NCBI GenBank assembly: GCA_040388985.1
Contig: JAZKAU010000002.1
Location: forward strand, 311,642 to 375,641
Direction of reading: 5' to 3'
From: Patescibacteria group bacterium
Lineage (GTDB): Bacteria; Patescibacteriota; Minisyncoccia; Phycocordibacterales; Phycocordibacteraceae
DNA: 64,000 nucleotides
Shown: positions 23,223-43,642 of the stretch, in pieces
How the letters are laid out: each line of letters opens with the position of its first letter
Numbering within the stretch: the stretch's first letter is position 1
Notes under the pieces: generated by a model
What the model was told of the DNA's origin: nothing
Databases searched by the model: none
The model's input: the letters and a program-made list of their open reading frames with translations, nothing else
Position numbers and translations under genes: made by a program

Positions 23223-23271
23223 TATCTTTTATCCATATTTCCTCTATGTGTTTGTGCCATAGTAGGTCGTT

Positions 23272-23944: not shown

Positions 23945-24018
23945 TGCGGGATCATCTAATGGTAGGATCCATGCTTCTGGCGCATGTCATCTAGGTTCGA
24001 GTCCTAGTCCCGCAGCCA
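23945..24018 (+). tRNA. tRNA-Gln (CTG), CCA encoded; integration target
   Basis: acceptor TGCGGGA/TCCCGCA, anticodon stem CATGC/GCATG loop TTCTGGC, T-arm CTAGGTTCGAGTCCTAG, GCCA end. Confidence 0.7.
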
Positions 24019-24032
24019 ACTCGTGCTAGGTT
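24006..24032 (+). repeat. left copy of 27-bp perfect direct repeat (tRNA-Gln 3' end + 14 nt): AGTCCCGCAGCCAACTCGTGCTAGGTT
   Basis: identical 27-mer recurs at 40422-40448. Confidence 0.8.
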
Positions 24033-24098
24033 ATCGCGCTCGAGACGCGTCGATATGAGAATCACCAAAATGGTATAATTGGTGGAGTCAACTTTAAT

Positions 24099-25010
24099 AT
24101 GTCCGCTTCCCATAATCACAATAGTGTTTCCGCAGATTCAGCCTCAATAGGCAAAGCATTTGCGTGGGGAGTCAGTCTCAATACTGTTTTCATTATTGTA
24201 GAAATCAGCTTCGGTCTACTGGCGGGATCTGTAGCTCTGATTGCGGACGCTGCTCATAACTTTAGCGACGTGCTAGGTCTCCTACTTTCGTGGGGTGCAC
24301 TAGCACTTGCTCGGAGAATTCCGAATGGAAAATACACCTACGGATATCGTTCAGCAACCATATTATCTGTCCTTGCCTCAACCGCTTTTTTGTTCGTGGC
24401 AGTGGGCGGGATTGTGTGGTCAGCATTCGGTCGCTTTGCAGAGCCAGCTCCAGTCGAAAGCGGTATTGTCATGATTGTTGCCGCTGTAGGCATTCTTATA
24501 AACGGACTTTCTGCGTGGTTGCTTTCACGGGGGAATAAAGATCTAAACGTGAAAAGTGCTTTCATGCATTTGGCGGCTGATGCGGCGGTATCGGCGGGAG
24601 TTGTCGTAGCAGGTATCGCTATCTACTTCACGGGTTGGAATGTTCTCGACCCTATCGTTAGTATTTTGATTTCAGTAGTCGTTCTATGGGGAGGTTGGGG
24701 TGTTCTGCGTGACGCAGTAAAGCTTGCTCTTAATGCCGTTCCTGATTCTGTACAGCTTCCTGAAGTTCGCACCTATCTTGAAACGCTTCCCGGGGTATCT
24801 CGCATACACGACGTACATGTCTGGCCTATAAGCACCACCGAAATCGCGCTTACAGCGCACCTAGTGCTTCCGCAGGGAGGGTGCAATGATCGTTTCTTGC
24901 ATGAAGTTTGTCATACATTACGCGAGCGTTTTGGTATTGCTCACGCAACCCTACAGACTGAACAAGGAGAAGGGGAGGAATGCGACCTCGCGCCTGAGGA
25001 AGTCGTCTAA
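24099..25010 (+). CDS. czcD: cation diffusion facilitator (CDF) family metal efflux transporter
   Basis: FAWGVSLNTVFIIVEI...LIADAAHNFSDV TM1-2 motif, His-rich N-terminus, C-terminal cytoplasmic domain. Confidence 0.85.
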   Translation: MSASHNHNSVSADSASIGKAFAWGVSLNTVFIIVEISFGLLAGSVALIADAAHNFSDVLGLLLSWGALALARRIPNGKYTYGYRSATILSVLASTAFLFVAVGGIVWSAFGRFAEPAPVESGIVMIVAAVGILINGLSAWLLSRGNKDLNVKSAFMHLAADAAVSAGVVVAGIAIYFTGWNVLDPIVSILISVVVLWGGWGVLRDAVKLALNAVPDSVQLPEVRTYLETLPGVSRIHDVHVWPISTTEIALTAHLVLPQGGCNDRFLHEVCHTLRERFGIAHATLQTEQGEGEECDLAPEEVV

Positions 25011-25153
25011 TATTTAACCCATGTCACCTAAAGCAATTATCTTTATTCTCTTAGCGCTAGTGGTAGCTTTCTTGATTTTTAAGACGGTAACTCATAAGCC
25101 AGGAGACATTTCGTTCCACATATGCACTAGTCAGATAGTGTAAAATAGGAGTC

Positions 25154-25516
25154 ATGCGTGCACCTAATCCTCTAATTACTTACGTATCGCTGGCTGCGTT
25201 TCTTTTTATAGTCATCGTTGGGCCGTGGCTGGTTTTCTCATCGCCGGTTGATATAGATCCCGGATGTCTTTTTACGCATGGTCAGGAATCGTTCTGTTCG
25301 ATGACTTCGCTCGAACATCTAGAGCAGTGGCAATCTGCGTTTATGTTCACGCTCGTGCAAATTCTCTCTTTCGCAGTATGTATCGCAGTTGTAAGTATCT
25401 TCTTCGCTATCATTCAGCGACTCAAACCAGATATCCCTTTCTTCTTTAAGCGATATCAACCCACGCTCTTTCAACAACTTTTCTCACAAGGAATATTGAA
25501 TTCAAAGGCTTACTAA
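25154..25516 (+). CDS. small membrane protein with conserved Cys pair (paralog of 30739..31107)
   Basis: GCLFTHGQESFCSMTSLEHLEQWQSAF... aligns with GCPFMKGETSICPMSVLDHITSWQSTF... of second copy. Confidence 0.45.
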   Translation: MRAPNPLITYVSLAAFLFIVIVGPWLVFSSPVDIDPGCLFTHGQESFCSMTSLEHLEQWQSAFMFTLVQILSFAVCIAVVSIFFAIIQRLKPDIPFFFKRYQPTLFQQLFSQGILNSKAY

Positions 25517-25557
25517 AACGCACATGCGCGTGCTTTTATTCGTTTGTTTGAAATCGT

Positions 25558-25758
25558 ATGCAGAAAAAGTTTATTGTTGCGTTGATAGCAACTTTATTAG
25601 TCGTAGGCTTTATAGGGTATCTCTACATAGGAAGGTCTGCTCCGACAGAAGATGGTGAATCAGTAGCAGTACCTGTAAATGAAACTTTATTTCAGCAACC
25701 TATAGTTTCACCTACGAACGCAGAGCCAGATGACTCACAACATCCATCCAATCTCTAA
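25558..25758 (+). CDS. small secreted/membrane-anchored hypothetical protein
   Basis: 66-aa ORF with N-terminal TM helix. Confidence 0.3.
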   Translation: MQKKFIVALIATLLVVGFIGYLYIGRSAPTEDGESVAVPVNETLFQQPIVSPTNAEPDDSQHPSNL

Positions 25759-25782
25759 ATTACCAACCTATACTTTAATCGT

Positions 25783-26340
25783 ATGTCCTTAGAATTATTC
25801 TCAACAATACTTACGATCGGCAGCATGGCCGTAAGTGCAGTACTGCTTCTGTCACTCGTTTTATTTCAGGTGTCAGGCAAGTTTAGAGAGCACGTATATG
25901 CTCATAGTTATTGGAGATTCTTAATAGCCATGGGTCTGCTATCAGTTGTTTCGATTGCAGGTGCTCTTATATATCAGCTTGTGTACCTAACGCCTGTATG
26001 CGAGTTGTGCTGGTGGCAACGAATATTCTTCTTCCCAATCAGTGTCATCTCGCTTGTTGCATTCTGGCGTAAATCTAAAGAGGCACACATTACTATCGCG
26101 ATTCTTGCCGCGCTAGGGCTTTTTTATGCGAGCTACCACTATTATTACCATTTCCAAGGTCTGGTACTCGGAAACAAACTTGCCCTCCCGTGTTCTTCTG
26201 GAGGCTTGCTTCCGGCCTGCACTGATTCGCCAATCTTAATATTTGGCTTCGTCACTATTCCGTTCATGGGAGTTCTCATGTTCTTGAGCATGCTCATACT
26301 CGCATATTTTGCGCACAAAGTCCTAAAACGTACTTCTTAA
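25783..26340 (+). CDS. disulfide bond formation protein B-like oxidoreductase (BdbC/DsbB family)
   Basis: PVCELCWWQRIFFFP (CxxC...QR) and second Cys pair CSSGGLLPAC; FGFVTIPFMG motif as in Bacillus BdbC. Confidence 0.75.
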   Translation: MSLELFSTILTIGSMAVSAVLLLSLVLFQVSGKFREHVYAHSYWRFLIAMGLLSVVSIAGALIYQLVYLTPVCELCWWQRIFFFPISVISLVAFWRKSKEAHITIAILAALGLFYASYHYYYHFQGLVLGNKLALPCSSGGLLPACTDSPILIFGFVTIPFMGVLMFLSMLILAYFAHKVLKRTS

Positions 26341-26364
26341 ATAGATTGATATACTAAAATTACT

Positions 26365-27003
26365 ATGAAAAATAGAACTATTTGGATCGGCGGAATCCTC
26401 ATTCTTTCCCTTGGAGCCCTTCTATTCCTTTCGACGCTCATACGTCCCGCTAGCCAGCCACCAGTAGGTAATTCAACACTTACGGCGCTTTCTTCAGACG
26501 ATTATATTCGTGGCGCTACTTCAAGCCCGGTAACACTAATCGAATATTTTGATTTTGAATGCGAAGCCTGCGGAGCATATTATCCGCTCGTAAAGCAATT
26601 GGAGAGCGAGTTGGGTGACCGCGTAACTTTTGTCGCGCGCTACTATCCGCTCCCGAACCATAAGAACGGGCTGCAGGCAGCGCTTGCCGCAGAAGCCGCA
26701 GGAAGACAAGGCAAGTTTTGGGAAATGCACGACCTACTCTTCACGCGCCAGAAAGAGTGGGGCGAGAAGCAGGTAGAGACTCCTGAAGTCTTTGCCCAAT
26801 ACGCACAGGAGATCGGGCTGGATGTAGAGCGTTTCAAGACGGATGTGACTTCAGCGGAGGTACGAGCACGCGTGCAGCGAGACCTAGATTCAGGCCGTGC
26901 GCTGGGTGTACAGGGTACGCCATCCTTCTTCTTGAATGGAGAGAAGATCCAGAACCCTCAGTCCTATGAAGCATTCAAGACGCTGCTTGAAAATAAGTTC
27001 TAA
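26365..27003 (+). CDS. DsbA/BdbD-like thioredoxin-fold thiol:disulfide oxidoreductase (secreted)
   Basis: signal anchor, active site FECEACGAYY (CxxC). Confidence 0.75.
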   Translation: MKNRTIWIGGILILSLGALLFLSTLIRPASQPPVGNSTLTALSSDDYIRGATSSPVTLIEYFDFECEACGAYYPLVKQLESELGDRVTFVARYYPLPNHKNGLQAALAAEAAGRQGKFWEMHDLLFTRQKEWGEKQVETPEVFAQYAQEIGLDVERFKTDVTSAEVRARVQRDLDSGRALGVQGTPSFFLNGEKIQNPQSYEAFKTLLENKF

Positions 27004-27006
27004 AAT

Positions 27007-28908
27007 ATGTCTTCTTCCTGCGACAACTGCGAAGTAAAGCCGGTAACGGGTCCTGATTGGAGGAAAATCGGTACCGGATATTCAGGCATTGCTACCATGC
27101 TCGGATTCTTACTCTCATACACCAGTCTTTTCCCTCAAGTACAAATGCCCCTTTTCCTCTCTGCAATAGCAGTAGGAGGCATATTCGTAGTTCGGGGTGC
27201 ACTACGGGGACTTACGCGTCAACGATTTCTTAATATTGATTTCCTCGTCGTTATCGCTACCATCGGTGCGCTGTACCTTGGTGAATTCGGGGAAGCGGCA
27301 GCCATTGTATTTTTCTTCTCGCTAGCGGAAGCATTTGAGGAATATGGAATAGCACGCTCTCGAAAAGCCCTTGAGGCACTCGTGGAAAAAAGTCCAAAGT
27401 TTGCAACACTCTCAGACGGAAGCGAGATGGCGGTTGAAAACATTACCGTTGGAACCGTGATCGCGGTTAAGCCCGGGAAGCTGATACCGCTTGATGGAGA
27501 AGTCGTCAAAGGTCAGTCGGCAGTGAATGAGGCTTCAATCACCGGAGAACCGCTACCAAAGGAAAAGACCGAGGGCGACACGGTGTACGCGGGAACGTTG
27601 AACGAAAATGGATACCTTGAAATTCGTGTGACCAAGGAAAGCAAGAATTCTACAATTGCAAAGATTGTAGGACTGGTAGAAGAGGCGCAGAAGTCAAAAA
27701 CAGGAGCAGAGGAATTCATTGATCGCTTTGCAAAATACTACACACCCGGCATCGCGTTCCTCGCGCTCGCCGTGTTTGCCGTCCCCGTACTTTTCCTTGG
27801 TGGCCAGGCTGCGCTATGGCTTGAACGGGCGATAACACTCCTTGTGATCGCATGCCCATGCGCTCTGGTAATTGCTACACCCGTTACGGTTACAGCAGCT
27901 CTCGGCGGCGCATCGCGCAGAGGAGTGCTTATCCGTGGCGGCCGTTTCCTTGAGATGCTTGGAAAGATCCGCGCCATTTCGTTTGATAAGACCGGCACAC
28001 TCACACAAGGAGAACCTCGTGTCGCCGCAGTCATTGCGTTTAATGGGTTTACAGAGCAGCAGGTTCTTGAAGACGCAGCAGGCATTGAGACGTACTCCTC
28101 GCACCCTCTTTCAAAAGCAATCCTCGCATATGCTACTGAGCGCGGGGTAACACCGCATACGATGGAAAAGTACGAGAACGTGAAAGGGAAGGGCGGACAG
28201 GCGGTATGTCTGGTCTGTGATGATACGGAGCATCTTATAGGGAACCTGAAAATGCTCGACACACACAATATAGATACGTCGAGTATTGTAGAAAAAACAA
28301 AAGAGTATGAAGAACAGGGAATGACCATCGTTCTAGTAACGGAGGGTCATACCCCTATGGGGGCACTCGCTATAACAGATACTATCCGCAGTGAATCTTC
28401 CGCCGTGATAGAGCGTCTGCGTGCAATGAAGGTAACCCCAGTTATGCTTACGGGTGACCATCAGCAGGGCGCGGACTATGTTGCCGTACAGGTAGGTATT
28501 ACCGAAGCAAGAGGCGATCTTCTTCCTGAAGACAAAGTGCGCGAGATGCAATCACTTAAAGCGAAGTATGATTCTGTTGCAATGGTCGGAGATGGGGTAA
28601 ACGATGCGCCCTCGCTCGCCATTGCAGACGTTGGTATTGCTATGGGAGCCCGAGGCTCTGATGTTGCAATCGAGACCGCAGATATTGCTCTTATGAATGA
28701 TTCTCTCTCAACGGTTCCTGACATGGTGCGTCTTGGTAGGCGCACACTCTCAACCGTTAAGGTGAATGTATTTCTCGCAATCGCGTCAAAACTCGCGTTC
28801 ATTATCCTTACTATCTTTGGCATATCCAGTCTTGGAATTGCGATAGCCGCAGATACAGGCATTGCAATTCTTGTCACTTTAAATGGCTTACGGTTATTCA
28901 GAGTTTAA
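27007..28908 (+). CDS. heavy-metal translocating P1B-type ATPase (Cd/Zn/Pb or Cu class)
   Basis: N-terminal CDNC, TM CPC motif (IACPCALVIATP), DKTGTLT, TGDHQ, GDGVNDAP. Confidence 0.9.
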   Translation: MSSSCDNCEVKPVTGPDWRKIGTGYSGIATMLGFLLSYTSLFPQVQMPLFLSAIAVGGIFVVRGALRGLTRQRFLNIDFLVVIATIGALYLGEFGEAAAIVFFFSLAEAFEEYGIARSRKALEALVEKSPKFATLSDGSEMAVENITVGTVIAVKPGKLIPLDGEVVKGQSAVNEASITGEPLPKEKTEGDTVYAGTLNENGYLEIRVTKESKNSTIAKIVGLVEEAQKSKTGAEEFIDRFAKYYTPGIAFLALAVFAVPVLFLGGQAALWLERAITLLVIACPCALVIATPVTVTAALGGASRRGVLIRGGRFLEMLGKIRAISFDKTGTLTQGEPRVAAVIAFNGFTEQQVLEDAAGIETYSSHPLSKAILAYATERGVTPHTMEKYENVKGKGGQAVCLVCDDTEHLIGNLKMLDTHNIDTSSIVEKTKEYEEQGMTIVLVTEGHTPMGALAITDTIRSESSAVIERLRAMKVTPVMLTGDHQQGADYVAVQVGITEARGDLLPEDKVREMQSLKAKYDSVAMVGDGVNDAPSLAIADVGIAMGARGSDVAIETADIALMNDSLSTVPDMVRLGRRTLSTVKVNVFLAIASKLAFIILTIFGISSLGIAIAADTGIAILVTLNGLRLFRV

Positions 28909-29067
28909 GCGGTTACTTAAGCCATACTTTAGTCCACACTTCTTCATAAAAGCATCATTGACCACGATTTTACCCTCGTTATACTAGTAGGACTGGTTAG
29001 ATACGGATGTACTCAAGAAAGCCTATTACAGGCTTTTTGTATTATGAAGAAACGCTGAATTTCCTTT

Positions 29068-30165
29068 TTGTTTCCTATTTTACCTTCAAAGTTTTTCTCC
29101 CGTTCTACACGTGCGTCGAACAGGGATACATATAAGCGGTTTGGTTTAGTAGCTGCGATTCCCGCTCTACTTCTTTTTGTCCATATCATCGCACCTAATG
29201 CGATAGACGGTTTCTTTCCGTTCCCTCACAGCGCACATGCGCAGAGCGATAGTATCGGCGGCATCATTCATGACCCAAGCATAGGTTTGCTTAAAGGCGT
29301 TCGTGACTCAAGTGTTACTGACGACAATGAGATGGAAGTCTCAGGAGGAATGGCGCTCATGTCTCATTCTGATCTTTCAGAAGGAAGTGAGGGAGGCGTA
29401 AGCACGCAATCAGCGAAGCCGAAGAAATCAGGCATTTCTCTCTACACTGTCAAAGAAGGAGATTCGCTTTCAGAAATAGCTGAAGAGCATGGAGTTTCAA
29501 GTAATACTATTCTCTGGGCAAACGACATTCGTGATGCAAGTACCATCCGTACTGGAGACGAACTTATTATCCTTCCTGTCTCAGGCGTACAGCATAAGGT
29601 AGCTTCTGGCGAGACTCTACAGACTATAGCGAAGAAGTATGGATCGGATGCATCTGACATCGCACTCTATAACGGCATTGATGAATCAAGTGGTCTTAAG
29701 CAGGGAGCAGAGATAGTGGTTCCCGGCGGAGCGTTCCCTTCAGCTACGAAGAAAGTCGCAAGTACGGCAAACACAAAGAAAGCTGCGGTATCAACAGCAA
29801 AGTCGAGTAGCTCGTCTACTGGCGGGAAGTTTGGGAACCCGCTCCCAGGCAGAGCGATCACACAGGCGAATCACGGATATAATGCAGTAGATATAGATGG
29901 CGAAACAGGAGACCCGATTTACGCTTCGGCTGGCGGTAAGGTCATTATTGCTAAGGGTGGAGGAGGCTACAACGGTGGCTACGGAAATTACATCGTAATT
30001 GAGCATGGGGGAGGAGTTCAGACACTTTACGCTCACATGTCGAGCCTTGCGGTGTCAGGTGGCACGGTTGAAAAGGGTGAGATTATCGGGTATGTAGGTA
30101 GTACCGGAAAATCAACGGGTTCGCATCTGCACTTTGAAGTTCGCGGAGCAACTAATCCGCTTTAA
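29068..30165 (+). CDS. LysM-domain M23 family metallopeptidase (peptidoglycan hydrolase)
   Basis: two LysM repeats (YTVKEGDSLSEIA..., HKVASGETLQTIA...), C-terminal M23 HxxxD/HxH motifs (AVDIDG, YAHMS, GSHLHFEV). Confidence 0.85.
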   Translation: MFPILPSKFFSRSTRASNRDTYKRFGLVAAIPALLLFVHIIAPNAIDGFFPFPHSAHAQSDSIGGIIHDPSIGLLKGVRDSSVTDDNEMEVSGGMALMSHSDLSEGSEGGVSTQSAKPKKSGISLYTVKEGDSLSEIAEEHGVSSNTILWANDIRDASTIRTGDELIILPVSGVQHKVASGETLQTIAKKYGSDASDIALYNGIDESSGLKQGAEIVVPGGAFPSATKKVASTANTKKAAVSTAKSSSSSTGGKFGNPLPGRAITQANHGYNAVDIDGETGDPIYASAGGKVIIAKGGGGYNGGYGNYIVIEHGGGVQTLYAHMSSLAVSGGTVEKGEIIGYVGSTGKSTGSHLHFEVRGATNPL

Positions 30166-30204
30166 GCGAGATTCTCTTGTCTTCCATAGCAGGATAGTAG
30201 TTTC

Positions 30205-30657
30205 CTAGAGCCTCTTGAGAATGCTACTCATCTGATCAATCTCCAGTTGCTGGCTCGCAATGATGTTCTGACAAAGCTGCTTTATCTCTGGATCAGTGAT
30301 TTTCGCTTGCTCACACATCAGTATGGCTCCTGAGTGGTGAGGAATCATAGATTGAAGGAATCCCTTGTCTCCCACAAAAGTCTGATATCGAATCGCAAGA
30401 AATGAAAGTACGAGAACAACGAACCCGATACCAATTATGATCTTGTTCAATTTCTTGTCTTTGTACATCATGCCCATGAGGAGCATCTCAAGAATGAGCA
30501 TAGGCGCAGTCATCATGATTCCCATATAGAGGAAATTGATATTTGGAACCGCGTTCGCAAATACATTTACCATTGCAAACATGAGGACGAACATGGCGAC
30601 TACATGGAGTCCGACCATAAGAGCTAGTTTGCTATAGGAGGCATCTTTCATATTCAT
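30205..30657 (-). CDS. DUF305 family membrane protein (metal-resistance associated)
   Basis: MIPHHSGAILMCEQA matches DUF305 HHxGA-x-M motif; N-terminal TM helices. Confidence 0.6.
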   Translation of the reverse strand: MNMKDASYSKLALMVGLHVVAMFVLMFAMVNVFANAVPNINFLYMGIMMTAPMLILEMLLMGMMYKDKKLNKIIIGIGFVVLVLSFLAIRYQTFVGDKGFLQSMIPHHSGAILMCEQAKITDPEIKQLCQNIIASQQLEIDQMSSILKRL

Positions 30658-30738
30658 AGAAATATTAGCTTATGCGAACTGATAATACGTATAGATATTG
30701 TACCTTTTATCCCTTCTTAATAGGTATAGAATAGAGGT

Positions 30739-31107
30739 ATGACTGCGCAGATAAAGAAACTCCTATCGTGGTCAGCGCTGGCTTTGATAGTAGTGGTTCC
30801 TCTCCTGATGCTTTTCACCATGGCGATGCCCATGGATCATAGTACGGGTGGCTGTCCCTTTATGAAGGGTGAGACTTCAATCTGCCCGATGTCGGTTTTG
30901 GATCACATAACGAGCTGGCAGAGCACATTTACCATTACTCTCGTCGAGATACTCACGTTTGCCCTGCCAATCTTCGCGCTCGCATTGATTTGGCTCATTC
31001 TTCCAAAACCTGAACATCCACCGGGGTACCGAAGACGTTCCTATCCAGTACCGCCTTTACTACAAGAACTCTTCTCAAGCGGTCTCCTCAATCCGAGAGT
31101 TCCATAG
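30739..31107 (+). CDS. small membrane protein with conserved Cys pair (paralog of 25154..25516)
   Basis: see paralog alignment; C-terminal QELFSSGLLNPRVP vs QQLFSQGILNSKAY. Confidence 0.45.
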   Translation: MTAQIKKLLSWSALALIVVVPLLMLFTMAMPMDHSTGGCPFMKGETSICPMSVLDHITSWQSTFTITLVEILTFALPIFALALIWLILPKPEHPPGYRRRSYPVPPLLQELFSSGLLNPRVP

Positions 31108-31146
31108 AAACCCTTTAGTTATCTTTATTTCACTTAACTAAACTCT

Positions 31147-32322: not shown

Positions 32323-32339
32323 TGTTCTACAAATCAAAA

Positions 32340-32373
32340 TATGCAAAAGGCCGCTATATAGCGGCCTTTTGCA
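32340..32373. terminator. bidirectional terminator hairpin (AAAAGGCCGCTATATAGCGGCCTTTT)
   Basis: perfect stem between convergent genes; possible boundary between metal module and satellite-like module. Confidence 0.6.
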
Positions 32374-32384
32374 TTAGGATGCTA

Positions 32385-33707
32385 CTAATTAATCGCCAGA
32401 GTAATTTTCTTGTCATTAATAAGAAGTTTACCCTTTAAACATCCAAGTAATTCCCGCTTTTCTATGTCCGCTCCTTCTCTTAAGAGGTATTTAGCGTAAT
32501 TTCGTATATCTACATCTACTATCTCAATTTTGGTCTTTGTGCCTAGAATAGCTTGCTGGAACTTCTTAAACCTCTCAACCTCAGCTTTTATCTTTTCCTT
32601 AATACCAATCTCGTCGATATCAATGGTATCCATAAGAGCGATGAATTGTTCTATAAGATCCGTCTCATTTATATAGCCTGATTTACAATTCACATCTTTG
32701 CCTTTGCCGCAGCCGTAATAGACGTGGCGGTGAACATTTCCGTTCTTTTGCTTCTTAAATTTCTCGTCAGCCGAGATACTTGAACCGCATAGGCCACACT
32801 CCATAAGACGAGTGAAGGCAAATTCTTTAGTCTCGGAACGGATCACTTGGCTCTTTACTTGTTCCTGAACGAGGTCAAACAGCTCTTTAGAAATAAGGGG
32901 TTCGTGCTTTCCTTGATACCAACGGCCTGAATTCTTCGGGTATTCAAATACTCCGTAGTAGAAGGGATTTTGGAGAAGAATATAAATATTACTCAAACTC
33001 AGGTTCTTGTTCCCGGCGGCTGTCTTAAAATTAAGCTCGAATTTGAGCCAGTTATATACCTTACGTCCGCTCCATTTTTCATATGCTACTTTCTCGAACA
33101 TCTTCCTAATTACCATTGCTCTATCTGGGTCGAGAATGCTCTGACACTTCCTATCCAGTCGCTGTTCTTTCAGATAGCCGGTAGGGGCACGTCCCGGCAG
33201 TAGTCCCATTTCTACTCTCGTCTTTAAACCTCTCTTTACATTAATACTCTTGTTGTCGTTCTCGAGCTTTGCTTGAGAACACAGAATCATCAGGAGGAAC
33301 TTCTCGTTAGGGGAGTTCCTGAAGTGTTGTCCGTAAGTACGAATTTCAAGGAGTAGCTTCTGATCCATCAGATCTACGAGTGTTCCTAAGTCTCCAGCAT
33401 TTCTACTCAAACGGTCAGGTGCCCAAGTTAGTACGGCGTTAAAGCGTCCGCGTCGTATATCTTCGAGTAGTTCTTGATATACAGGTCGTTGTCCTGAATC
33501 CTTTGCTGAATGCGACTCTCTCCGAATATCTACTATCTCTAGATTCTCCCGCTCAGCGATTTGAAGCATTTCCTTAATCTGCGAATCTATGGAAAGAGCT
33601 TGCTTCTCATCGGACTCGGTAGATTTTCGGGCGTATAAGCAGTATCTAATTTTCTCTTCTATAATGACGGGTGATAATCCTATCTGTGAGGTTTCTAAAG
33701 TTTGCAT
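32385..33707 (-). CDS. large serine recombinase (resolvase/invertase N-domain + recombinase domain + zinc ribbon)
   Basis: YARKSTESDEKQ catalytic Ser region, DRLSRN, recombinase domain, CGLCGSS...YYGCGKG zinc ribbon, C-terminal coiled coil. Confidence 0.85.
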   Translation of the reverse strand: MQTLETSQIGLSPVIIEEKIRYCLYARKSTESDEKQALSIDSQIKEMLQIAERENLEIVDIRRESHSAKDSGQRPVYQELLEDIRRGRFNAVLTWAPDRLSRNAGDLGTLVDLMDQKLLLEIRTYGQHFRNSPNEKFLLMILCSQAKLENDNKSINVKRGLKTRVEMGLLPGRAPTGYLKEQRLDRKCQSILDPDRAMVIRKMFEKVAYEKWSGRKVYNWLKFELNFKTAAGNKNLSLSNIYILLQNPFYYGVFEYPKNSGRWYQGKHEPLISKELFDLVQEQVKSQVIRSETKEFAFTRLMECGLCGSSISADEKFKKQKNGNVHRHVYYGCGKGKDVNCKSGYINETDLIEQFIALMDTIDIDEIGIKEKIKAEVERFKKFQQAILGTKTKIEIVDVDIRNYAKYLLREGADIEKRELLGCLKGKLLINDKKITLAIN

Positions 33708-33711
33708 ATAG

Positions 33712-34014
33712 TTATTTCAATTTACTTAATGCTTCGGCACGAAGTCTTCCCATATCTCGGAGTACACCTAAATATACTTTCCGGCTCCTGTCCGTACCTT
33801 GGTGCGTATTGAGCCAGTCGATCAACTCGTCTGGTACGTATGTAGCAAGAGAGCTATAGGAAACTATCAACTCTTCAATCCTTTCAAGGATTGCTCGCTT
33901 TAAATCCTTCTTGGAGTGGGGAAGCAGAGAGATTCTATTCAGATAGGCACTGTCGGCTTCTTTCTTAAAACGATAATGATCTGCGGTATCCAATATTTCG
34001 TCCCTGTCCTCCAC
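33712..34014 (-). CDS. small hypothetical protein (possible RDF/regulator)
   Basis: 100-aa ORF immediately upstream of recombinase on same strand. Confidence 0.3.
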   Translation of the reverse strand: MEDRDEILDTADHYRFKKEADSAYLNRISLLPHSKKDLKRAILERIEELIVSYSSLATYVPDELIDWLNTHQGTDRSRKVYLGVLRDMGRLRAEALSKLK

Positions 34015-34326
34015 CTATTAATTGATGCCAGACTGGTGGCTGGTGCATAGTCTATGCAGAACTAGTCTTTCGTCGCATGGTCGCGAAGGCCTTAGCAAAG
34101 GGTAGGAACTGCGATAATATGAAGAAGTAGTACAGGGCTATGTATTACCTCAATATGGCCTAAACCGAGCAATTGCCCGGCATGGCCGAATAACCGCGAC
34201 CAGCATAGAAAACCCGTCATCAGGGCGCTGGTCGCGTTACCAGGGGAAACTCTGGTATGTCCTTCGGGACTCCTGGTGGCGGGTTTTGTGCTACCCACCA
34301 GAATTACAAATCGCGACCAGCAACAT

Positions 34327-34806
34327 ATGAATGACTCAACCGAGAGTGAGAAATCTGCTCTACAAAAACCTATTAGCGAGCTATGGAAAACCAGTCCTGT
34401 AACTCGAGTTACCACTGTTGTAGTGGTGCTTATACTGATCCTTATAGTTTGGGGTTCTGGAACACCAGCTCCAACATATCAATATCAGTATGTTCCAGAT
34501 ACGAGTTCTCAGCCTGCTGTAAGTACAACGGGAACGTATCAAGAAGTGCTTACGTTCTCTGGCAATGGACCTAAGCGGTCAGAGCCATTTACCATTATAG
34601 GTAGCCGATTCAAGATTACTTATGATTGTAAGGCTATGTATTGCGGCGCGTTCGTATTCAACACAAGCGATCAGATGCCAAGAGCGCTTATGAATAGCCC
34701 TGAGGCAGTAAGCGATGAAACTGTGTTCTACGGTAGCGGCCAATACTACATTGATACCAATATAGTGAATGGAAGTTATACGATGACGGTATACGACTAT
34801 AAATAG
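34327..34806 (+). CDS. membrane-anchored extracellular hypothetical protein
   Basis: single TM (VTTVVVVLILILIVW) then Thr/Tyr-rich beta region; start trimmed to MNDSTESEK. Confidence 0.4.
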   Translation: MNDSTESEKSALQKPISELWKTSPVTRVTTVVVVLILILIVWGSGTPAPTYQYQYVPDTSSQPAVSTTGTYQEVLTFSGNGPKRSEPFTIIGSRFKITYDCKAMYCGAFVFNTSDQMPRALMNSPEAVSDETVFYGSGQYYIDTNIVNGSYTMTVYDYK

Positions 34807-34818
34807 TCTCCAGTTAAT

Positions 34819-36270
34819 TTAAAAGAATCGGGGCACAGCTGGAGGATTGTTGACTGTGTGTAGTACAAGCATCGAAAAGGCATCGGCTAGGTCATCATGC
34901 TTTTCGACACCGAAGTGTACCAGCTGTTGAATTAGCTGTTCCGCGCCTTCTCTTGGGAAAAGGATTGTGCCATTCTTAATTAGATTTGCGGTTAACATGA
35001 GTCGACTGCGCTTGTCTGACCCTGGGTGAATAGTCTCTACTTGCCAAATACCTTCGGTAATAAGCTGCTCGGCCATAGCCCTCTGATACCCAACATCTTC
35101 GATAAGAAATGTGGCTTGTTGTCTATCCTCGTCCATATATGTCTGGTGAAGGATCTTGCAGGTATTTACTGTTTCGGGAAAATCCATTCTCCTGTTTACG
35201 ATCTTAGGCAGGATATATATGCAGTAGTCATTCTCTCGTTCATACAATAGCGCAGGAACCATGGCGGTGTAGTCCGCCGTATCCCTCTTGGATATCGCAA
35301 GATCTACTCCAATATGGAGCTCTGTATGCGTTGTGTAATATTCGTCCAACTGTGTTGATGGAGGAATCGTATCGTAGTACTGAATCCAGGCGCGATCGAT
35401 AACTTGATCTTCGGCAGGAACGATATTTAAGAGATATTCTCTCTGCCAAGCATATTCGTTAGAAGCTTTACGGCGTTCCTCCTCAACATCCTCCATGGTT
35501 GGATATTTGCCTGGCCATAGCACCTGACTTCTGTCGATAAGTGGATAAGACTTAAAAACACCCACCATGCTCTCTGTTTCCACATCTTCTTTAAGTCTCA
35601 TCATGAGTGAATCCTCGTGAAGGAGGTTTCCGATAATGATCATGCGCGTAGTACGGTCTCCGGTCGGTATAACTTCACCCGTTAGCCATTCATAGGTCTT
35701 ATTACGTCCCTCGCGTGTTTTCGTCGAAGCGATATCTTCAAGGTCGTCTCCAATAATAAGATCTGGTCTGTGTTGGTTGTGACGCAAGCCTCGGATGCTT
35801 TGTTCGGAAGAGACGGTTGTGATACGGGCATTGGTTTCAGCAAATACGAGTGAGGAAGCTCCCCATTCGTTATGCTCTTCTTGAAACGGACCAAGATCGT
35901 TCTTAAGGAGTATATTTCCCTCAAGCTCGCGTCGTAGGTTCATCATATGTTGCTTTGCTTGCGCCTGGGTCTGCGCGAGTATTAGCACGAACTTCTTCTG
36001 TGGCTGTCCAAGGATTGCCCAAAGCGGATATGACATAGTGAAGATCGTAGACTTTGCCGACCCACGAAATGCGACTATGAAGAGGTTTCTGATGTTTTCT
36101 TGTTCAGACAGATGAATCAGTTCTCGTTGGAAGGGAGCGGTAGGGTACTTTACATAGTGTGCGAAGTAGAAGTGGAAGAACATGAAGTGGCTTTGCCGAG
36201 TGATTGCTGAGCGAACATTACGGTCACTAAACATTTTCTCGGCAAGTTCTGGTGGCAGATGCTCATTCAT
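34819..36270 (-). CDS. phage terminase large subunit
   Basis: Walker A-like VAFRGSAKST, Walker B LIIGDDLED, C-terminal RNaseH-like nuclease acidic residues; size 483 aa. Confidence 0.8.
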   Translation of the reverse strand: MNEHLPPELAEKMFSDRNVRSAITRQSHFMFFHFYFAHYVKYPTAPFQRELIHLSEQENIRNLFIVAFRGSAKSTIFTMSYPLWAILGQPQKKFVLILAQTQAQAKQHMMNLRRELEGNILLKNDLGPFQEEHNEWGASSLVFAETNARITTVSSEQSIRGLRHNQHRPDLIIGDDLEDIASTKTREGRNKTYEWLTGEVIPTGDRTTRMIIIGNLLHEDSLMMRLKEDVETESMVGVFKSYPLIDRSQVLWPGKYPTMEDVEEERRKASNEYAWQREYLLNIVPAEDQVIDRAWIQYYDTIPPSTQLDEYYTTHTELHIGVDLAISKRDTADYTAMVPALLYERENDYCIYILPKIVNRRMDFPETVNTCKILHQTYMDEDRQQATFLIEDVGYQRAMAEQLITEGIWQVETIHPGSDKRSRLMLTANLIKNGTILFPREGAEQLIQQLVHFGVEKHDDLADAFSMLVLHTVNNPPAVPRFF

Positions 36271-36682
36271 CTTGGTCTTGGATAGGGCTCTCTAAGTTTG
36301 CTGGTTCAGGAAGAGAGAAGGAGGCAAGTCGAAGTGCTTCGCGTACCACTTCTTCTTGTTCAGGAGTAAGTTCTTCCTTTGGTTTCGTAGTCGTCACCTC
36401 CAGACGATCGCGATACTTGGGACTGCGCTTACGGAGCCAGAAGGATATGGCGTTCCAGTTCTTGTCGCGGATCATACTAATGAGCTGGCTTTCGCTCATG
36501 TCGTTGATCAGTTCCTCGCCTTCGCCTAACGCTATGTCCATCGATTTACGGAACTCAGGATCTTCGTTTTTCCAGCGATAGACGCTATTGCGCGATACTC
36601 CAACTTTTTCGCAGGCGACCTGGACGATAGGGACTTTCCGGAGATGATCCAGGAACGCGTCTTTGACCTTATTCTTTTTCAT
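36263..36682 (-). CDS. terminase small subunit-like HTH protein
   Basis: N-terminal HTH (VQVACEKVGVSRNSVYRWKNED), located directly upstream of terminase large subunit. Confidence 0.5.
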   Translation of the reverse strand: MKKNKVKDAFLDHLRKVPIVQVACEKVGVSRNSVYRWKNEDPEFRKSMDIALGEGEELINDMSESQLISMIRDKNWNAISFWLRKRSPKYRDRLEVTTTKPKEELTPEQEEVVREALRLASFSLPEPANLESPIQDQDE

Positions 36683-37958
36683 GCGCGTTTCCGGTTACTT
36701 TTGCTTTGTTTCCCGTAAGCTTTTCGTACCGCTTAATAGCGAGATCGCAGAAGGCAGGCTCAAGTTCTACGGCGTAGACGCGGCGCTTCAACTGCTCGGC
36801 GGCAATCATCGTACTTCCTGAGCCAGAGAAGCTATCGAGAATAATCTCGCCTGGCTTCGTACAGCGACGAATAGCCTTCTCATGAAGCTTAGGGGGCTTC
36901 GAGGTTGCGTGTTCATAATCTTTCCCAGAGAGTCGCTTTACGAGCCACACATCGAGATGATCGAGCGTCTCCTCAATGAGGTTGTTTCCAGTCGTAATCT
37001 CCTTATTGAGTACTTCGTTCAGGTTCTGAATGCTCTTGGCTATATACGGTTTACCTCGCAGTCCATAAACGCAGGGTTCGTAGCATTTATTGAACGCGAC
37101 AGACGGCACCGGATTCTGCGAGTTCTTGAGCCATAGACACACACGCTTATTCGCTATACCGAGTTCGCGGTACAGCTCCTGCATGAGACCGATATAGATC
37201 TGATCGCACCAGTAGAAGACATGCGTATCCGGCTTCGCTACCGAAAGGGCAGCGATCATCGTCTTTGTTATGAATTCCTTATACTCGCTGTCAGTGCGAG
37301 TATCGAGGACGTTTCCTCCATAGTTCTGCTTGCCCCCAATCCCCCCGTTGTAGTCGATATTGATGTTGTATGGTGGATCGCTATAGATCATTGACGCGCG
37401 TTCCTCTCCGAAGAGGTGACCGAGTACCCTTGGGTCAGTTGAACTCCCGCAAATAAGACGATGGCCACCAAGCTGAATGAGGTCTCCAATCTTAGTTTTT
37501 GGCTCCTTGATCTGCTTCAGCTCCTTCTCTTCGTCGAATTCGTCATTCTCTGTCTCCAAGTTCTCCGTCCAGACATTCGAGAGGTCGATGTCGCTAAAGC
37601 CAACATCAGACAGGAAGTCCATCTCGAAGAACTTCAATTTCTCGAAGTCCCATTCTCCGGTGTTGCGGTTAAGGCGAAGGTTCAGTTCCTGTTCCTTCCT
37701 CAGGCTTGGAATCTGGACGTACACGACTGGTACAGTCTTGTGTCCCAATTCCTTAGCGGCACGAAGGCGCATGTGACCACCAATAACGATGTTCTTGCGC
37801 TTCGGTGCACCATTCACGATTACAGGATCTACCAGCTCGAAGCGAGAGATACTCTCTTTAAGCTGGGTAAGCGCCTCCTTGGAGATCTTGCGAGGGTTGT
37901 ACTCGGCAGGCTTTAAGTCTCCGACCGGTACGTACACAATATTTAGTTCTTTGTTCAT
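36669..37958 (-). CDS. ParB-like nuclease domain fused to DNA N6-adenine/N4-cytosine methyltransferase
   Basis: ParB N-domain (IGGHMRLRAAKELG), MTase motif IV DPPY (IYSDPPYNI) and motif I (LDSFSGSGST). Confidence 0.85.
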   Translation of the reverse strand: MNKELNIVYVPVGDLKPAEYNPRKISKEALTQLKESISRFELVDPVIVNGAPKRKNIVIGGHMRLRAAKELGHKTVPVVYVQIPSLRKEQELNLRLNRNTGEWDFEKLKFFEMDFLSDVGFSDIDLSNVWTENLETENDEFDEEKELKQIKEPKTKIGDLIQLGGHRLICGSSTDPRVLGHLFGEERASMIYSDPPYNINIDYNGGIGGKQNYGGNVLDTRTDSEYKEFITKTMIAALSVAKPDTHVFYWCDQIYIGLMQELYRELGIANKRVCLWLKNSQNPVPSVAFNKCYEPCVYGLRGKPYIAKSIQNLNEVLNKEITTGNNLIEETLDHLDVWLVKRLSGKDYEHATSKPPKLHEKAIRRCTKPGEIILDSFSGSGSTMIAAEQLKRRVYAVELEPAFCDLAIKRYEKLTGNKAKVTGNAHEKE

Positions 37959-38124
37959 ATTCCTTTGAAACAGTTATGTTCAATAAGGATGTATGGAAAT
38001 AGAAAAGGCCTATTCCACACACGAAAAGAGAAGAGGTTCAATGCCTCAACTCATTTCTTGCGCGGAATAGGCATGGCCGGGAGGCGATACGCTACTCTAC
38101 TTTTTACTACGCTATATCACTATT

Positions 38125-38532
38125 CTATTCCTCTCGCTTTTTCTTCGCAAGGCCTCGAAGCACTCGCTTACCATTTTTACTGTTCAGGAACTCCACAGTA
38201 TCCTTTCCCGGTCCCACTGGAACGCCTGCACGGTCAAAAGAGAGAAGGACTTTATATCCTTTAGACTCTTGATCCCGTACATAATTCACAAAATCTGGAT
38301 CCTCCTTAAGACGATTGATTGCGTACGCGCGTGAATCCATTAGTGCGAGCAAGTCAATTGGCCCGTAAATGCGACCTGGTTGCCCTGCATCAACTGCTTT
38401 TCGTATTTTATTTCCGACTGAAGGAGTGGCAGTCTTTGCCGCAGTATGGAACGCTCCGTCAGTGATATGAATCGTGACATATTTCCGTCCCTTTTTAAGG
38501 ACGGCGGGATTTAGATCAAGCCGATATTCCAT
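38125..38532 (-). CDS. hypothetical protein (135 aa after start trimming), divergent from CD-NTase gene
   Basis: ORF 38125..38742 trimmed to internal ATG (MEYRLDLNPAV...) to avoid overlap with + strand gene; no motif recognised. Confidence 0.35.
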   Translation of the reverse strand: MEYRLDLNPAVLKKGRKYVTIHITDGAFHTAAKTATPSVGNKIRKAVDAGQPGRIYGPIDLLALMDSRAYAINRLKEDPDFVNYVRDQESKGYKVLLSFDRAGVPVGPGKDTVEFLNSKNGKRVLRGLAKKKREE

Positions 38533-38595
38533 ACCAGTATTATACTCTTCTCCTATTTGCTCGCTATATAACCTGGGCTGTAATAAAATAGCGTT

Positions 38596-39489
38596 ATGTC
38601 TTGGGAAGATACTTTTATTACCTGGTCCGCACCACCCAGCCTCACTGAACGTGAGAAGATGGAAAATGCTGAAACGGCAATACGTAAAGCCGTTGCCGCA
38701 AACACTCGTTTGAGTCAAATGGATGTGTCCATCATCCCGCAAGGTTCTTATCGTTCAAAGACAAATGTAAGATTGGACAGTGACGTCGATATTGCAGTAT
38801 GTCTAAATTCGACGTTCTTCACGCAATATCCTGCTGGTAAAGTACACGAAGATTTTGGAAATAGTAGCTCGGAAGAAATTACTTTTCCTGAATTTCGCGG
38901 TCTAGTACAAGTCGCCCTAGATGACTATTTTGGCTCTGCACAAGTAACGCCAGGAAATAAGGCCTTTGATATCCATTCAAATAATTATCGAGTTGATGCT
39001 GATGTGGTAGCTACATTCGCACATCGCCATTACTTCGAGAACGGTCTATTTATAGAACCAGCAGGAGTAGCATTTCTTACGCGCGACACTTCAAAAAGAA
39101 TTGAGAATTGGCCACATCAAGCCTACGAAAACGGAAAAGATAAACATGATAGAACAGGTCGTCGGCACCGGAAAATGGTTCGCATCCTAAAACGTCTTCG
39201 CAATAAGATGCAGGCAGAAGGTTATGAAGAAGCAAACGACATCTCCTCGTATCTCATTGAAAGCATGGTCTGGAATGCCGCCGACCAGTCTTTTAATCAC
39301 ACAACTTATACTGAAGATGTTCGAGCTGTATTAGCATACTGCTTCAATGAGACCCTGCCTGCGGGAAGCCACGGATCTCTTGTTGAATCGAATGATATTA
39401 AGTACCTCTTCCATGTAACTCAGCCGTGGACGCGCGAACAGGCTCACAAATTCTTTTCTGCCGCATGGAATTATTTAGGCTTCCAATAA
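38596..39489 (+). CDS. cGAS/DncV-like nucleotidyltransferase (CD-NTase, SMODS-type minimal NTase)
   Basis: Pol-beta NTase motif QGSYRSKTNVRLDSDVDIAV (GS...DxD) and downstream DADV; N-terminus WSAPPSLTEREKMENAE resembles clade-E CD-NTases. Confidence 0.75.
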   Translation: MSWEDTFITWSAPPSLTEREKMENAETAIRKAVAANTRLSQMDVSIIPQGSYRSKTNVRLDSDVDIAVCLNSTFFTQYPAGKVHEDFGNSSSEEITFPEFRGLVQVALDDYFGSAQVTPGNKAFDIHSNNYRVDADVVATFAHRHYFENGLFIEPAGVAFLTRDTSKRIENWPHQAYENGKDKHDRTGRRHRKMVRILKRLRNKMQAEGYEEANDISSYLIESMVWNAADQSFNHTTYTEDVRAVLAYCFNETLPAGSHGSLVESNDIKYLFHVTQPWTREQAHKFFSAAWNYLGFQ

Positions 39490-39491
39490 GT

Positions 39492-40118
39492 ATGGAAAAG
39501 GTAAACGGGAAGGTACAGATGTATGTTCAAATAATTACTTTTCTTTTTGTTTGGATTCTCGTACTTATATTTACGCAACCAAACCAGACTTGGGATTTAA
39601 TAAATGCACTCAAAGAAGTACCAACGGCCATATCTATATATGCTGTCCTAAGTCTTTTATTTGTTAAATGGCTTTGGCGTATTCCAATCCTTCATCCGTG
39701 GTTAGTGAAAATACCTAATCTTAACGGTACATGGCGAGGTGTTTTAAAAAGCGATTGGGTCAATCCTGTAACAGGAAAGAATATTGAGCCAATACCTGTT
39801 CTTCTTACGATTAAGCAAGATTTCTCTAATCTACATTGCGTATTGATGACAAAGGAGTCAACAAGTTACAGTGTTGTCGCAGATATTAATTTTGGACTTG
39901 GGGGAGATACGTCCTGTCTTAGCTACACTTATACAAATCGATCCAAAGCATCAATCCGAGATAGAAGTCCAATACATGACGGCGCCGCAATTCTTAAGAT
40001 TATTAAGAATCCACAGATTTCCTTAGAGGGAGAATACTGGACAAGCAGAAAAACGAAAGGAGATATCAATGTCATTCTAGAATCAAGAAAGATAGTAGAA
40101 AGTTACATAGAAGTGTAA
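39492..40118 (+). CDS. 2-TM membrane effector with C-terminal beta-rich domain (Cap15-like CBASS effector candidate)
   Basis: two TM helices (VQIITFLFVWILVLIF; AISIYAVLSLLFVKWLW) then ~140-aa beta-rich domain; ATG 3 nt after CD-NTase stop. Confidence 0.5.
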   Translation: MEKVNGKVQMYVQIITFLFVWILVLIFTQPNQTWDLINALKEVPTAISIYAVLSLLFVKWLWRIPILHPWLVKIPNLNGTWRGVLKSDWVNPVTGKNIEPIPVLLTIKQDFSNLHCVLMTKESTSYSVVADINFGLGGDTSCLSYTYTNRSKASIRDRSPIHDGAAILKIIKNPQISLEGEYWTSRKTKGDINVILESRKIVESYIEV

Positions 40119-40150
40119 CTTTCTACGTGACACTCAAAACCTCATTCCTG

Positions 40151-40266
40151 TGTCACTTTTGTCACTTTCCTAGGTGCACGAGACGCGTCGTTTTGGATTC
40201 TGAAAACTCACCAAACGGACTAAGCAGGGCTTGGTTCTAGACGGTTCGAACTCGAGACGGCCAGCA
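40151..40266 (+). repeat. ~115-nt structured repeat, copy B (tandem GTCACTTT half-sites, GACGCGTC palindrome, GAGACGGCCAGCA end)
   Basis: ~85% identical to 41839-41954; partial motif also at 24041-24052. Confidence 0.7.
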
Positions 40267-40421
40267 ACGTATGGAAGCCGCCCGGGAGGGCGGTTTTCAC
40301 GTTGCTGCGGGAAGCGAGTGTGGGGCACTCGCGTCTAGGACTCGAAGCTGTTACGAGTATTTCTCAGGAGTCCTCCGAACTGAGAAATCCGCAACGGATA
40401 CTGCTCCGTAGGAGAGAGGCC

Positions 40422-40448
40422 AGTCCCGCAGCCAACTCGTGCTAGGTT
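40422..40448 (+). repeat. right copy of 27-bp direct repeat (att-like)
   Basis: identical to 24006-24032. Confidence 0.8.
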
Positions 40449-40508
40449 CGGACGCACGAGATGCGTAGTCTCGACTTAAGACACACAACTTTACTGTCGT
40501 GGACGTAC

Positions 40509-43629: not shown

Positions 43630-43642
43630 GTTCTAACCTCCT

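Follow-up and report, generated by a model that had tools for sequence, protein, structure and literature searches.

A tRNA-Gln island of a Patescibacteria bacterium as a probable integrated element of a large family with a serine recombinase as its proposed integrase

We analysed a stretch of DNA of 64,000 nucleotides (the window) from a Patescibacteria group bacterium of the Candidate Phyla Radiation (CPR; assembly GCA_040388985.1, contig JAZKAU010000002.1, positions 311,642 to 375,641). At the 3' end of a tRNA-Gln gene, the window contains an island bounded by a direct repeat that encodes a large serine recombinase (LSR), phage-type terminase genes, a cyclic oligonucleotide-based antiphage signalling system (CBASS), and metal-efflux and thiol-redox proteins. 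The tRNA gene, the repeat and the open reading frames (ORFs) of the island are as follows, with the source of each assignment in brackets.

23945-24018, +: tRNA-Gln(CTG), proposed integration target and B arm of attL (ARAGORN; Rfam 23945-24015, 52 bits)
24006-24032, +: left copy of the 27-bp repeat, proposed attL core (exact match, two copies only)
24019-24056, +: element-borne arm P' directly after the CCA, ACTCGTGCTAGGTTATCGCGCTCGAGACGCGTCGATA (comparison with relatives)
24099-25010, +: CDF efflux protein (Pfam)
Between the CDF efflux and DsbB-like genes, +: two small ORFs (cargo)
25783-26340, +: DsbB-like protein (Pfam)
26365-27003, +: DsbA-like protein (Pfam)
27007-28908, +: P-type ATPase (Pfam)
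29068-30165, +: LysM-Peptidase_M23 protein (Pfam), possibly a lysin remnant
30205-30657, -: DUF305 protein (Pfam)
Between the two DUF305 genes, in the block 30205-32322: 122-aa ORF
31147-31548, +: second DUF305 protein (Pfam)
31549-32322, +: glutaredoxin-MauE fusion (Pfam)
32341-32374, -: perfect 17+17 hairpin after the LSR gene (scores as LSR terminator)
32385-33707, -: LSR of 440 aa, proposed integrase (Pfam, PHROG)
33712-34014, -: 100-aa helical protein, co-oriented with the LSR (84-90% identity beside the LSR in relatives)
34157-34271, +: LOOT RNA (Rfam RF03000), leader of the following ORF (69.5 bits against a gathering threshold of 46.4, full model)
34327-34806, +: variable 159-aa ORF after LOOT (gene call in L156)
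34819-36270, -: terminase large subunit, TerL (phrog_38, 3.8e-80; Terminase_6C)
36263-36682, -: TerS-like helix-turn-helix protein (phrog_4044, 7.7e-13, and four other TerS PHROGs)
36669-37958, -: fusion of ParB_N and an N6/N4 DNA methyltransferase, ParB-methylase below (Pfam; phrog_498, 5e-92)
38125-38532, -: conserved 135-aa ORF upstream of the methylase (gene call in L156)
38596-39489, +: CD-NTase of a type I CBASS (PADLOC cyclase, 2.8e-114)
~39492-40118, +: Cap15 2TM effector of the type I CBASS (PADLOC, 3.5e-72; Pfam Cap15)
40422-40448, +: right copy of the 27-bp repeat, proposed attR core (exact match)

The 27-mer AGTCCCGCAGCCAACTCGTGCTAGGTT is present in two exact copies, both on the + strand, and a scan of the window detected no further copy even with three mismatches (chance expectation 0). 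The left copy consists of the last 13 nt of tRNA-Gln, including the encoded CCA, and 14 nt of the trailer, by the positions from ARAGORN and from Rfam, whose match excludes the CCA; the acceptor strands of the tRNA (TGCGGGA/TCCCGCA) pair intactly. Weaker similarity extends past the repeat (45 nt at 87%), and the repeat is perfect over 27/27 nt whereas the neighbouring bases have diverged. Each of five GTDB genomes (Ca. Saccharibacteria, a Paceibacteria metagenome-assembled genome (MAG) and uncultured bacteria) contains the 22-mer core of the repeat a single time, in every case at the 3' end of tRNA-Gln(CTG), and all five loci carry the element arm. Thus, the core of the 27-mer is not a dispersed repeat, and the exactness, copy number and tRNA content that an earlier reading of this DNA (made from the letters and a list of their ORFs; the sequence-only reading) had given for it are correct. 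In total, the locus has an intact tRNA gene at one boundary, a displaced, directly repeated copy of its 3' end at the other, and a recombinase inside.

The GC content of 24033-40421 is 0.461, compared with 0.550 in the left flank and 0.526 in 46501-64000, and is alike in the two halves of the island (0.469 and 0.452). Moreover, the k-mer comparison that had been proposed gave a tetranucleotide distance to the flanks of 0.31-0.34 inside the island vs 0.09-0.16 outside (~3x background). The interval is therefore richer in AT than its flanks, as had been stated, but the AT-rich stretch is not bounded by the right repeat, because low GC content continues beyond it to ~46.5 kb; a search for att remnants near that end of the low-GC stretch detected none.

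The LSR contains the Resolvase, Recombinase and Zn_ribbon_recom domains (PF00239, 2.5e-21; PF07508, 3.7e-14; PF13408, 8e-7), matches a PHROG integrase family (2e-62), and has a YARKS catalytic motif, a zinc ribbon and a coiled-coil-like tail, all domains being intact. The closest solved structure is that of SPbeta SprA. More than 8000 homologues were detected at E<=1e-20; the best 120 are 74-92% identical to the LSR, and those with a named source come almost exclusively from CPR bacteria. For comparison we used 142 loci around LSR relatives from IMG/VR and metagenomes (individual loci carry L numbers) as well as the contexts of two close homologues. Across the relatives, the genes for the ParB-methylase, the TerS-like protein, TerL and the LSR are co-oriented; at the 70 loci where 6.5 kb or more lies upstream of the LSR, one or more of the three partners was found in 54 cases and the full trio in 33. 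The locus L007, in which the LSR is 92% identical, has the same layout as the window, i.e. tRNA-Gln, cargo, LSR, core, CBASS and the right-end module D1 described below; there, tRNA-Gln adjoins CTP synthase and the cargo is an RHS toxin.

Several smaller features belong to the conserved core. The 135-aa ORF occurs in the equivalent position at about 10 loci with 33-53% identity. The 159-aa ORF, by contrast a variable one, has only 4 homologues, one of them 100% identical and from a Patescibacteria MAG. The 100-aa ORF is a candidate directionality factor; its AlphaFold model is helical with a confidence (pLDDT) of 65.7, too low for a fold search, and gave no assignment. LOOT RNA was detected in 8/9 related loci (L007 9437-9551, L010 9415-9540, L076 2991-3116, L078 9686-9813, L082 9722-9838, L084 9749-9866, L086 2555-2682 and L083 2696-2814), in every case on the opposite strand to the LSR; at seven of these loci its distance upstream of the LSR is 135-590 nt. 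Where checked (window, L007 and L010), LOOT directly leads a variable, poorly conserved ORF. LOOT may be a cis-regulatory leader or a small RNA of the element control region.

Searches of the island ORFs with Pfam and PHROGs gave no matches to capsid, portal, tail, lysis-cassette or replication genes. As in phage satellites, packaging genes are present without a complete virion set, here as well as in L024 and L036; a replication module of its own, another trait of satellites, is absent in that no island ORF has a replication domain. Because no capsid genes were seen, the element is probably either satellite-like or a stable reduced prophage. The same absences would be expected of an immobile fossil, i.e. 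a prophage that decayed in place and in which the repeat and the core are too young to have eroded, and such a history would also fit that neither an empty site nor a circle was found and that the neighbouring remnants show that decay occurs at this locus. However, the compact core recurs with intact full-length genes in dozens of independent contigs at 45-96% amino acid identity, which random decay would not yield. Moreover, in the long contigs L024 and L036 the space between TerL and the LSR, where structural genes were expected, contains none; instead of broken structural genes, this slot holds type I restriction-modification in L024 (3040-9851) and a reverse transcriptase together with type III restriction-modification in L036 (3892-9661). 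A slot without structural genes supports a compact capsid-less family and not a set of randomly decayed prophages. Finally, the repeat is perfect next to diverged bases, and the LSR retains its catalytic motif and all domains. We consider a fossil unlikely.

The gap between the LSR and the tRNA varies continuously in length across the family, from 95 nt to 9 kb, and therefore acts as a cargo slot. In the window this slot holds metal-efflux and thiol-redox genes, while a far-end slot holds the CBASS, which forms a type I system in that the cyclase lies beside the effector without ancillary Cap2/Cap3 or HORMA genes, and which the sequence-only reading had not named. In L076 (LSR 85% identical), the genes for LysM-M23, P-type ATPase, DsbA and DsbB lie beside the LSR in the same order as in the window, the last three proteins with 65-74% amino acid identity. 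LysM-M23 abuts the 3' end of the LSR gene in L076 (78% identity) and in L010-L013 (73% identity; LSR 89% identical), where another copper/thiol set follows. The DUF305/glutaredoxin-MauE block at 30205-32322 is absent between LysM-M23 and the LSR in L076 and L010 and is therefore a modular insertion.

These observations bear on whether the locus arose by tandem integration of two independent islands at tRNA-Gln, one with metal genes and one of phage-satellite type, followed by loss of the att site in the middle. The two halves do differ in function, a strong hairpin (32341-32374) lies between them, and tandem arrays clearly form at this locus; but no third att copy was detected between the halves, with no tRNA fragment, P'-type arm or D1 near 32.3 kb, the metal and thiol genes keep their order beside the LSR in L076 and L010-L013, the LSR-tRNA gap is continuous in length, and the GC content of the halves is alike. 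Tandem integration is quite improbable on this evidence, and the island appears to be one element. The description of the locus as a composite island thus stands for its two kinds of gene content, a metal/thiol half and a phage-satellite-like half, but not in the sense of two fused islands; the terminator that had been placed between the halves is real and scores as that of the LSR.

Relatives carry further cargo, including a 1637-aa DUF4011 helicase-nuclease (L010 98-5011) and a 2023-aa RHS/SpvB toxin (L007 12376-18447), and from the gene contents the LSR family appears to be a carrier of defence and toxin genes in CPR bacteria. Metal genes also follow tRNA-Gln and the arm in other CPR genomes, i.e. 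DUF305 and DsbA (L003 1-1470), CopA (L006 890-3830) and Zur with ZnuABC (L005 1-6730). In L002-L005, one or two decayed T-arm/acceptor fragments follow the arm, as expected of an integration hotspot that is used repeatedly. Perfect palindromes of 34-47 nt lie at 22627-22673, 23186-23225 and 32341-32374; the Logan contig L001 starts and stops inside two of them (23196 and 32370), and the assembly breaks there are therefore technical.

At all 48 loci that have a tRNA gene downstream of the LSR, the nearest one converges on the LSR (48/48), and in seven loci the gap is just 95-202 nt. These tRNAs are Gln (16), Ser (14), Trp (5), Glu (4), Asp (3), Arg (3), Asn (2) and Lys (1). A tRNA upstream of the LSR was found at only 2 loci despite more sequence searched (901 kb vs 629 kb downstream). 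The isotype is common to nearest-neighbour LSRs in 30/48 cases, compared with roughly 12 expected, and close LSR relatives do switch isotype. Clear repeats at both ends were recovered in two relatives: in L083, a 19-nt tRNA-Gln(TTG) repeat bounds an island of 8.5 kb, in which the LSR is the sole site-specific recombinase and terminase genes are lacking, and L096 is a 16.3-kb island with a 13-nt repeat of the tRNA-Gln 3' end (18/19 with one indel). No other end-to-end repeats were clear among the IMG/VR loci, most contigs of which stop at the tRNA. Together with the 48/48 linkage, these two islands support the attL/attR interpretation of the repeat that the sequence-only reading had offered.

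The sequence directly after the LSR-adjacent tRNAs is element-like. The arm after tRNA-Gln is identical over 37/37 nt in the window, L002, L005 and L006 while the tRNA bodies differ; beside related LSRs, tRNAs for Trp, Glu, Ser and Asn are followed by a CTCGTGC-TAG-CACGAG palindrome or a TATCG..GAGACC motif; and no element-type arm follows the other five tRNAs of the window. The arm motif, which was chosen post hoc, follows 39/48 LSR-adjacent tRNAs vs 2/20 other tRNAs at the same loci. In L096 (Gln-TTG) and L098 (Asn), the LSRs are 89% identical and homology extends for >70 nt from GCCA/ACT onward, whereas the tRNA bodies and acceptor strands are unrelated; because the homology starts at this point, the boundary between host and element lies at the CCA end. 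In L067, a 25-nt 3' fragment of tRNA-Asp is joined to a P'-type arm without a full tRNA, and this junction is a candidate attP. On the other side of the target tRNA in the window, a gene for a LAGLIDADG_3-domain protein (23272-23940, +) lies immediately upstream; in L004 a 60%-identical homologue occupies the equivalent place, and L005 shows a similar gene end, making it a conserved neighbour of the target tRNA.

The sequence-only reading had left two origins of the repeat side by side, an earlier tyrosine-integrase event and a serine recombinase whose attP carries a tRNA fragment. Under the former, an element whose integrase has since been lost made the repeat, and the LSR module is a later passenger. 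This would agree with 13-27-bp repeats of tRNA 3' ends being the standard signature of tyrosine integrases and with the LSR adjoining neither end of the island; moreover, the Islander study states that only tyrosine integrases, and not serine integrases, were known to target tRNA genes (PMC4383910). However, a Pfam scan of 41 ORFs between 21.5 and 51.5 kb (most of those >100 aa) detected no tyrosine recombinase, leaving the LSR as the only recombinase inside the island, as had been noted, and the gene lists of L007, L010-L013 and L083 contain none either. Furthermore, the linkage of LSR and tRNA is 48/48 in a fixed orientation with near-contact in seven loci, and the arm behind the tRNA accompanies the LSR from one isotype to another. 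Because a tyrosine integrase is absent here and in the inspected relatives, the LSR is linked to tRNAs and paired repeats occur in relatives, we favour a serine recombinase with a tRNA-bearing attP and regard the tyrosine-integrase origin as very improbable. It is scarcely credible that tRNA-Gln is followed by a native trailer or small RNA kept by descent, with a second copy that is a local duplication unrelated to integration, for although a ~40-nt trailer that can form a CTCGTGC..GCACGAG hairpin is conserved in six or more genomes, it is better conserved than the tRNA body before it, matches no Rfam family, and has relatives behind five other tRNA isotypes only beside an LSR element.

The right end of the island is layered and contains the following features.

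40133-40272, +: D1 unit, a conserved right-end module of 140 nt (95% identical at the right end of L007)
40306-40434, +: tRNA-like scaffold of ~125 nt (equivalent architecture in L082, 860-1015, and L083, 7140-7282)
40449-41958, no strand assigned: older-element remnant (P'-like arm CGGACGCACGAGATGCGTAG, 88-aa ORF, TrpR-like ORF, 251-aa ORF, second D1)

D1 consists of TGTCAC repeats, GCACGAGACGCGTCG and a diverged mimic of tRNA-Gln from the T-loop to the 3' end (GGTTCGAACTCGAGACGGCCAGCA), and is also present near the right ends of L082, L084, L096, L107, L123, L128 and L136/L041. A strong hairpin separates D1 from the scaffold. The scaffold comprises a 5' acceptor strand (TGCGGGA), a covarying hairpin, an inverted copy of the T-loop/T-stem, a spacer of 70-100 nt and a 3' acceptor strand within the repeat, with which its first 7 nt, TGCGGGA, pair. 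In L082 and L083 the scaffold acceptor strands match those of the cognate tRNAs, in L083 for both acceptor strands (TGGGGAA/TTCCCCA). Neither D1 nor the scaffold matched a known RNA in Rfam at E<=10, and ARAGORN with introns allowed found no tRNA. From this architecture, an RNA, a DNA site and a captured tRNA are all candidates for the nature of the scaffold. In L007, a second, different serine recombinase (499 aa; 1-1190) abuts the D1 of the first element; D1 was considered as a remnant of a second LSR gene and this was rejected, as only the last 18 codons of that recombinase overlap D1. Two LSR modules per contig are found in the IMG/VR pairs L027/L029, L049/L050, L053/L054 and L073/L074, and tandem or multiple elements per genome are seemingly common.

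Beyond the right repeat, a second D1 copy (41839-41958) is 84% identical and lies 1.4 kb further out, the motif CGAGAYGCGTMG occurs at both 40457 and 41867, and the GC content of 40449-41958 is 0.48. We interpret 40449-41958 as what is left of an older related element. Since the arm of this remnant resembles that of the present element, the outer 14 nt of the repeat would be alike without the crossover having to span them. All five right ends that could be inspected have an arm-like outer flank, so that either elements regularly insert one after another or the recombinase requires a target with such an arm. In a 97.8%-identical contig, the only other assembly of the region, the right junction is unchanged. 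The contig L158 of a sister sample stops precisely at 40271, on the D1 boundary, where no long exact repeat is found; this end could reflect low coverage or a population variant. Further out and outside the repeats, 41959-46500 (GC content 0.47) encodes a uridine-kinase-like P-loop kinase, an alpha/beta hydrolase, a 281-aa ORF, a cyclodipeptide synthase (44517-45401; PF16715, 2.5e-14), an N-terminal fragment of an asparaginase and DUF5946, and may be the cargo of an older island. A cyclodipeptide synthase in a CPR genome is itself unusual.

Altogether, 24006-40448 is probably a single integrated mobile element of a very large CPR family with the LSR as its proposed integrase. The conserved phage-derived core of the family is composed of a small ORF, the ParB-methylase, the TerS-like protein, TerL, LOOT with its variable ORF, the 100-aa protein and the LSR. 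The LSR would recombine the element attP with the 3' end of a tRNA gene, with host and element meeting at the encoded CCA. The left arm of attP would copy or mimic the tRNA 3' end, and its right arm would carry the CTCGTGC..GCACGAG/GAGAC motif. After integration the tRNA would be intact and followed by the right arm of the element, and the tRNA-like arm at the far end would yield the direct repeat. In this repeat, 13 nt are those of the tRNA 3' end, and the simplest origin of the other 14 is identity with the leftover right arm of an older relative. Comparison of the arms thus makes it likely that ~13 of the 27 nt are tied to the crossover, the outer 14 nt probably being homology between two related element arms. 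The predicted attP reads GGAGAGAGGCC, AGTCCCGCAGCCAACTCGTGCTAGGTT and ATCGCGCTCGAGACGCGTCG in succession, with a predicted junction CTCCGTAGGAGAGAGGCC-AGTCCCGCAGCCAACTCGTGCTAGGTT-ATCGCGCTCGAGACGCGTCGATATG, and the predicted junction of the empty attB is tRNA-Gln..CCTAGTCCCGCAGCCAACTCGTGCTAGGTT-CGGACGCACGAGATGCGTAGTCTCGAC. Having terminase genes but none for capsid, tail or replication, the element probably either spreads in the particles of a helper phage or persists as a stable reduced prophage.

Several points weigh against this interpretation. Three candidate right junctions exist (40272, 40434/40448 and 41958), leaving the excisable unit uncertain, and the LSR is separated from attL by 8.3 kb and from attR by 6.7 kb. 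The GTDB scan recovered no empty tRNA-Gln site, all five loci having the element arm, and exact-protein look-ups of the flanking genes returned the same arrangement or nothing; likewise, an IMG/VR search with the repeat core gave no match to a circular or phage form or an attP for this element. As neither an empty site nor a circular junction was found, we infer mobility, and LSR catalysis at these sites, present-day excision and packaging are to be read in the same way. A directionality factor was not identified, the model of the 100-aa ORF being of low confidence, and neither replication genes nor a helper phage were found. IMG/VR loci may be trimmed at tRNAs; however, about two-thirds of the 48 tRNA-linked cases are untrimmed metagenome contigs, and trimming at prophage boundaries is therefore not the cause of the LSR-tRNA pattern. 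Finally, att identity of 13-27 bp is unusual for LSRs, the repeats at LSR islands being 27, 19 and 13-19 bp in the window, L083 and L096, respectively. In textbook LSR systems, the att sites are short (about 40-50 bp) and have only a 2-bp core in common. Streptococcal integrative and conjugative elements with serine integrases have repeats of 2-21 bp and target protein-coding genes (PMC4701971).

The island resembles the tRNA islands described with Islander/TIGER in having an intact tRNA at one end, a displaced direct 3' fragment at the other and an integrase inside, as well as in its atypical composition, cargo and tandem remnants at one tRNA, but its recombinase is an LSR and theirs is a tyrosine integrase. 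With the phiC31, Bxb1, A118 and SPbeta SprA integrases, the LSR shares a resolvase domain with the Ser motif, a recombinase domain, a zinc ribbon and a coiled-coil-like C-terminal region; it differs in that sequence similarity is only distant (E 2e-12), in being small (440 aa), in targeting a tRNA 3' end instead of a protein-coding gene, and in an attP that seems to copy or mimic the tRNA end with 13-27 bp of identity. Like phage-inducible chromosomal islands (PICI), their capsid-forming variants (cfPICI) and P4-like satellites, elements of this family have 8-18 kb, encode an integrase and packaging functions but no complete set of virion genes, and keep variable defence cargo (CBASS, restriction-modification, reverse transcriptase) at fixed positions; unlike them, they have no recognised replication or helper-sensing module, and in contrast to cfPICI both terminase subunits but no capsid genes are present. 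The Ralstonia inovirus phiRSM, a filamentous phage, reportedly (Askora, in 2011) uses a small resolvase-like serine recombinase at the 3' end of a tRNA-Ser gene with a short common core; it is alike in using a serine-family recombinase at a tRNA 3' end, and differs as a small enzyme of an inovirus from an LSR in a terminase-bearing CPR island. The tycheposons of Prochlorococcus also target tRNAs, include cargo-carrying and PICI-like forms, leave partial tRNA copies and accrete into islands, and 27/937 of them have an LSR (10.1101/2020.12.28.424599). They belong to another phylum, and the LSR is the exception there and the rule here; moreover, the present element lacks a primase/helicase replication module and has both TerS and TerL, the ParB-methylase and LOOT RNA. 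In the literature searched we found no description of this CPR LSR family. The island itself is an ordinary kind of object; what makes it of interest is the class of its recombinase, the size and conservation of the family, the terminase-only core and the link to LOOT.

A broader proposal, which we put forward tentatively and hold to be somewhat doubtful, is that these elements are undescribed CPR-wide satellites that bear terminases but no capsid genes, with LOOT in their control region. Their LSR might read generic tRNA 3' ends (T-arm and CCA) through a tRNA-mimicking attP, so that relatives could hop between isotypes, insert beside older scars and build islands of defence and metal resistance.

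tRNA-linked islands are textbook objects and have been attributed almost entirely to tyrosine integrases; an extensive, highly conserved LSR family with a consistent link to tRNA 3' ends would extend the range of targets known for serine integrases. These enzymes are preferred tools of genome engineering, for which tRNA ends, being nearly universal, would make attractive landing sites. The orphan LOOT RNA gains a genomic home in an LSR element family. For CPR bacteria, whose mobile elements are poorly known, the family would be a major vehicle of defence, toxins and metal resistance, and this group of tiny genomes gains a candidate satellite/helper system.

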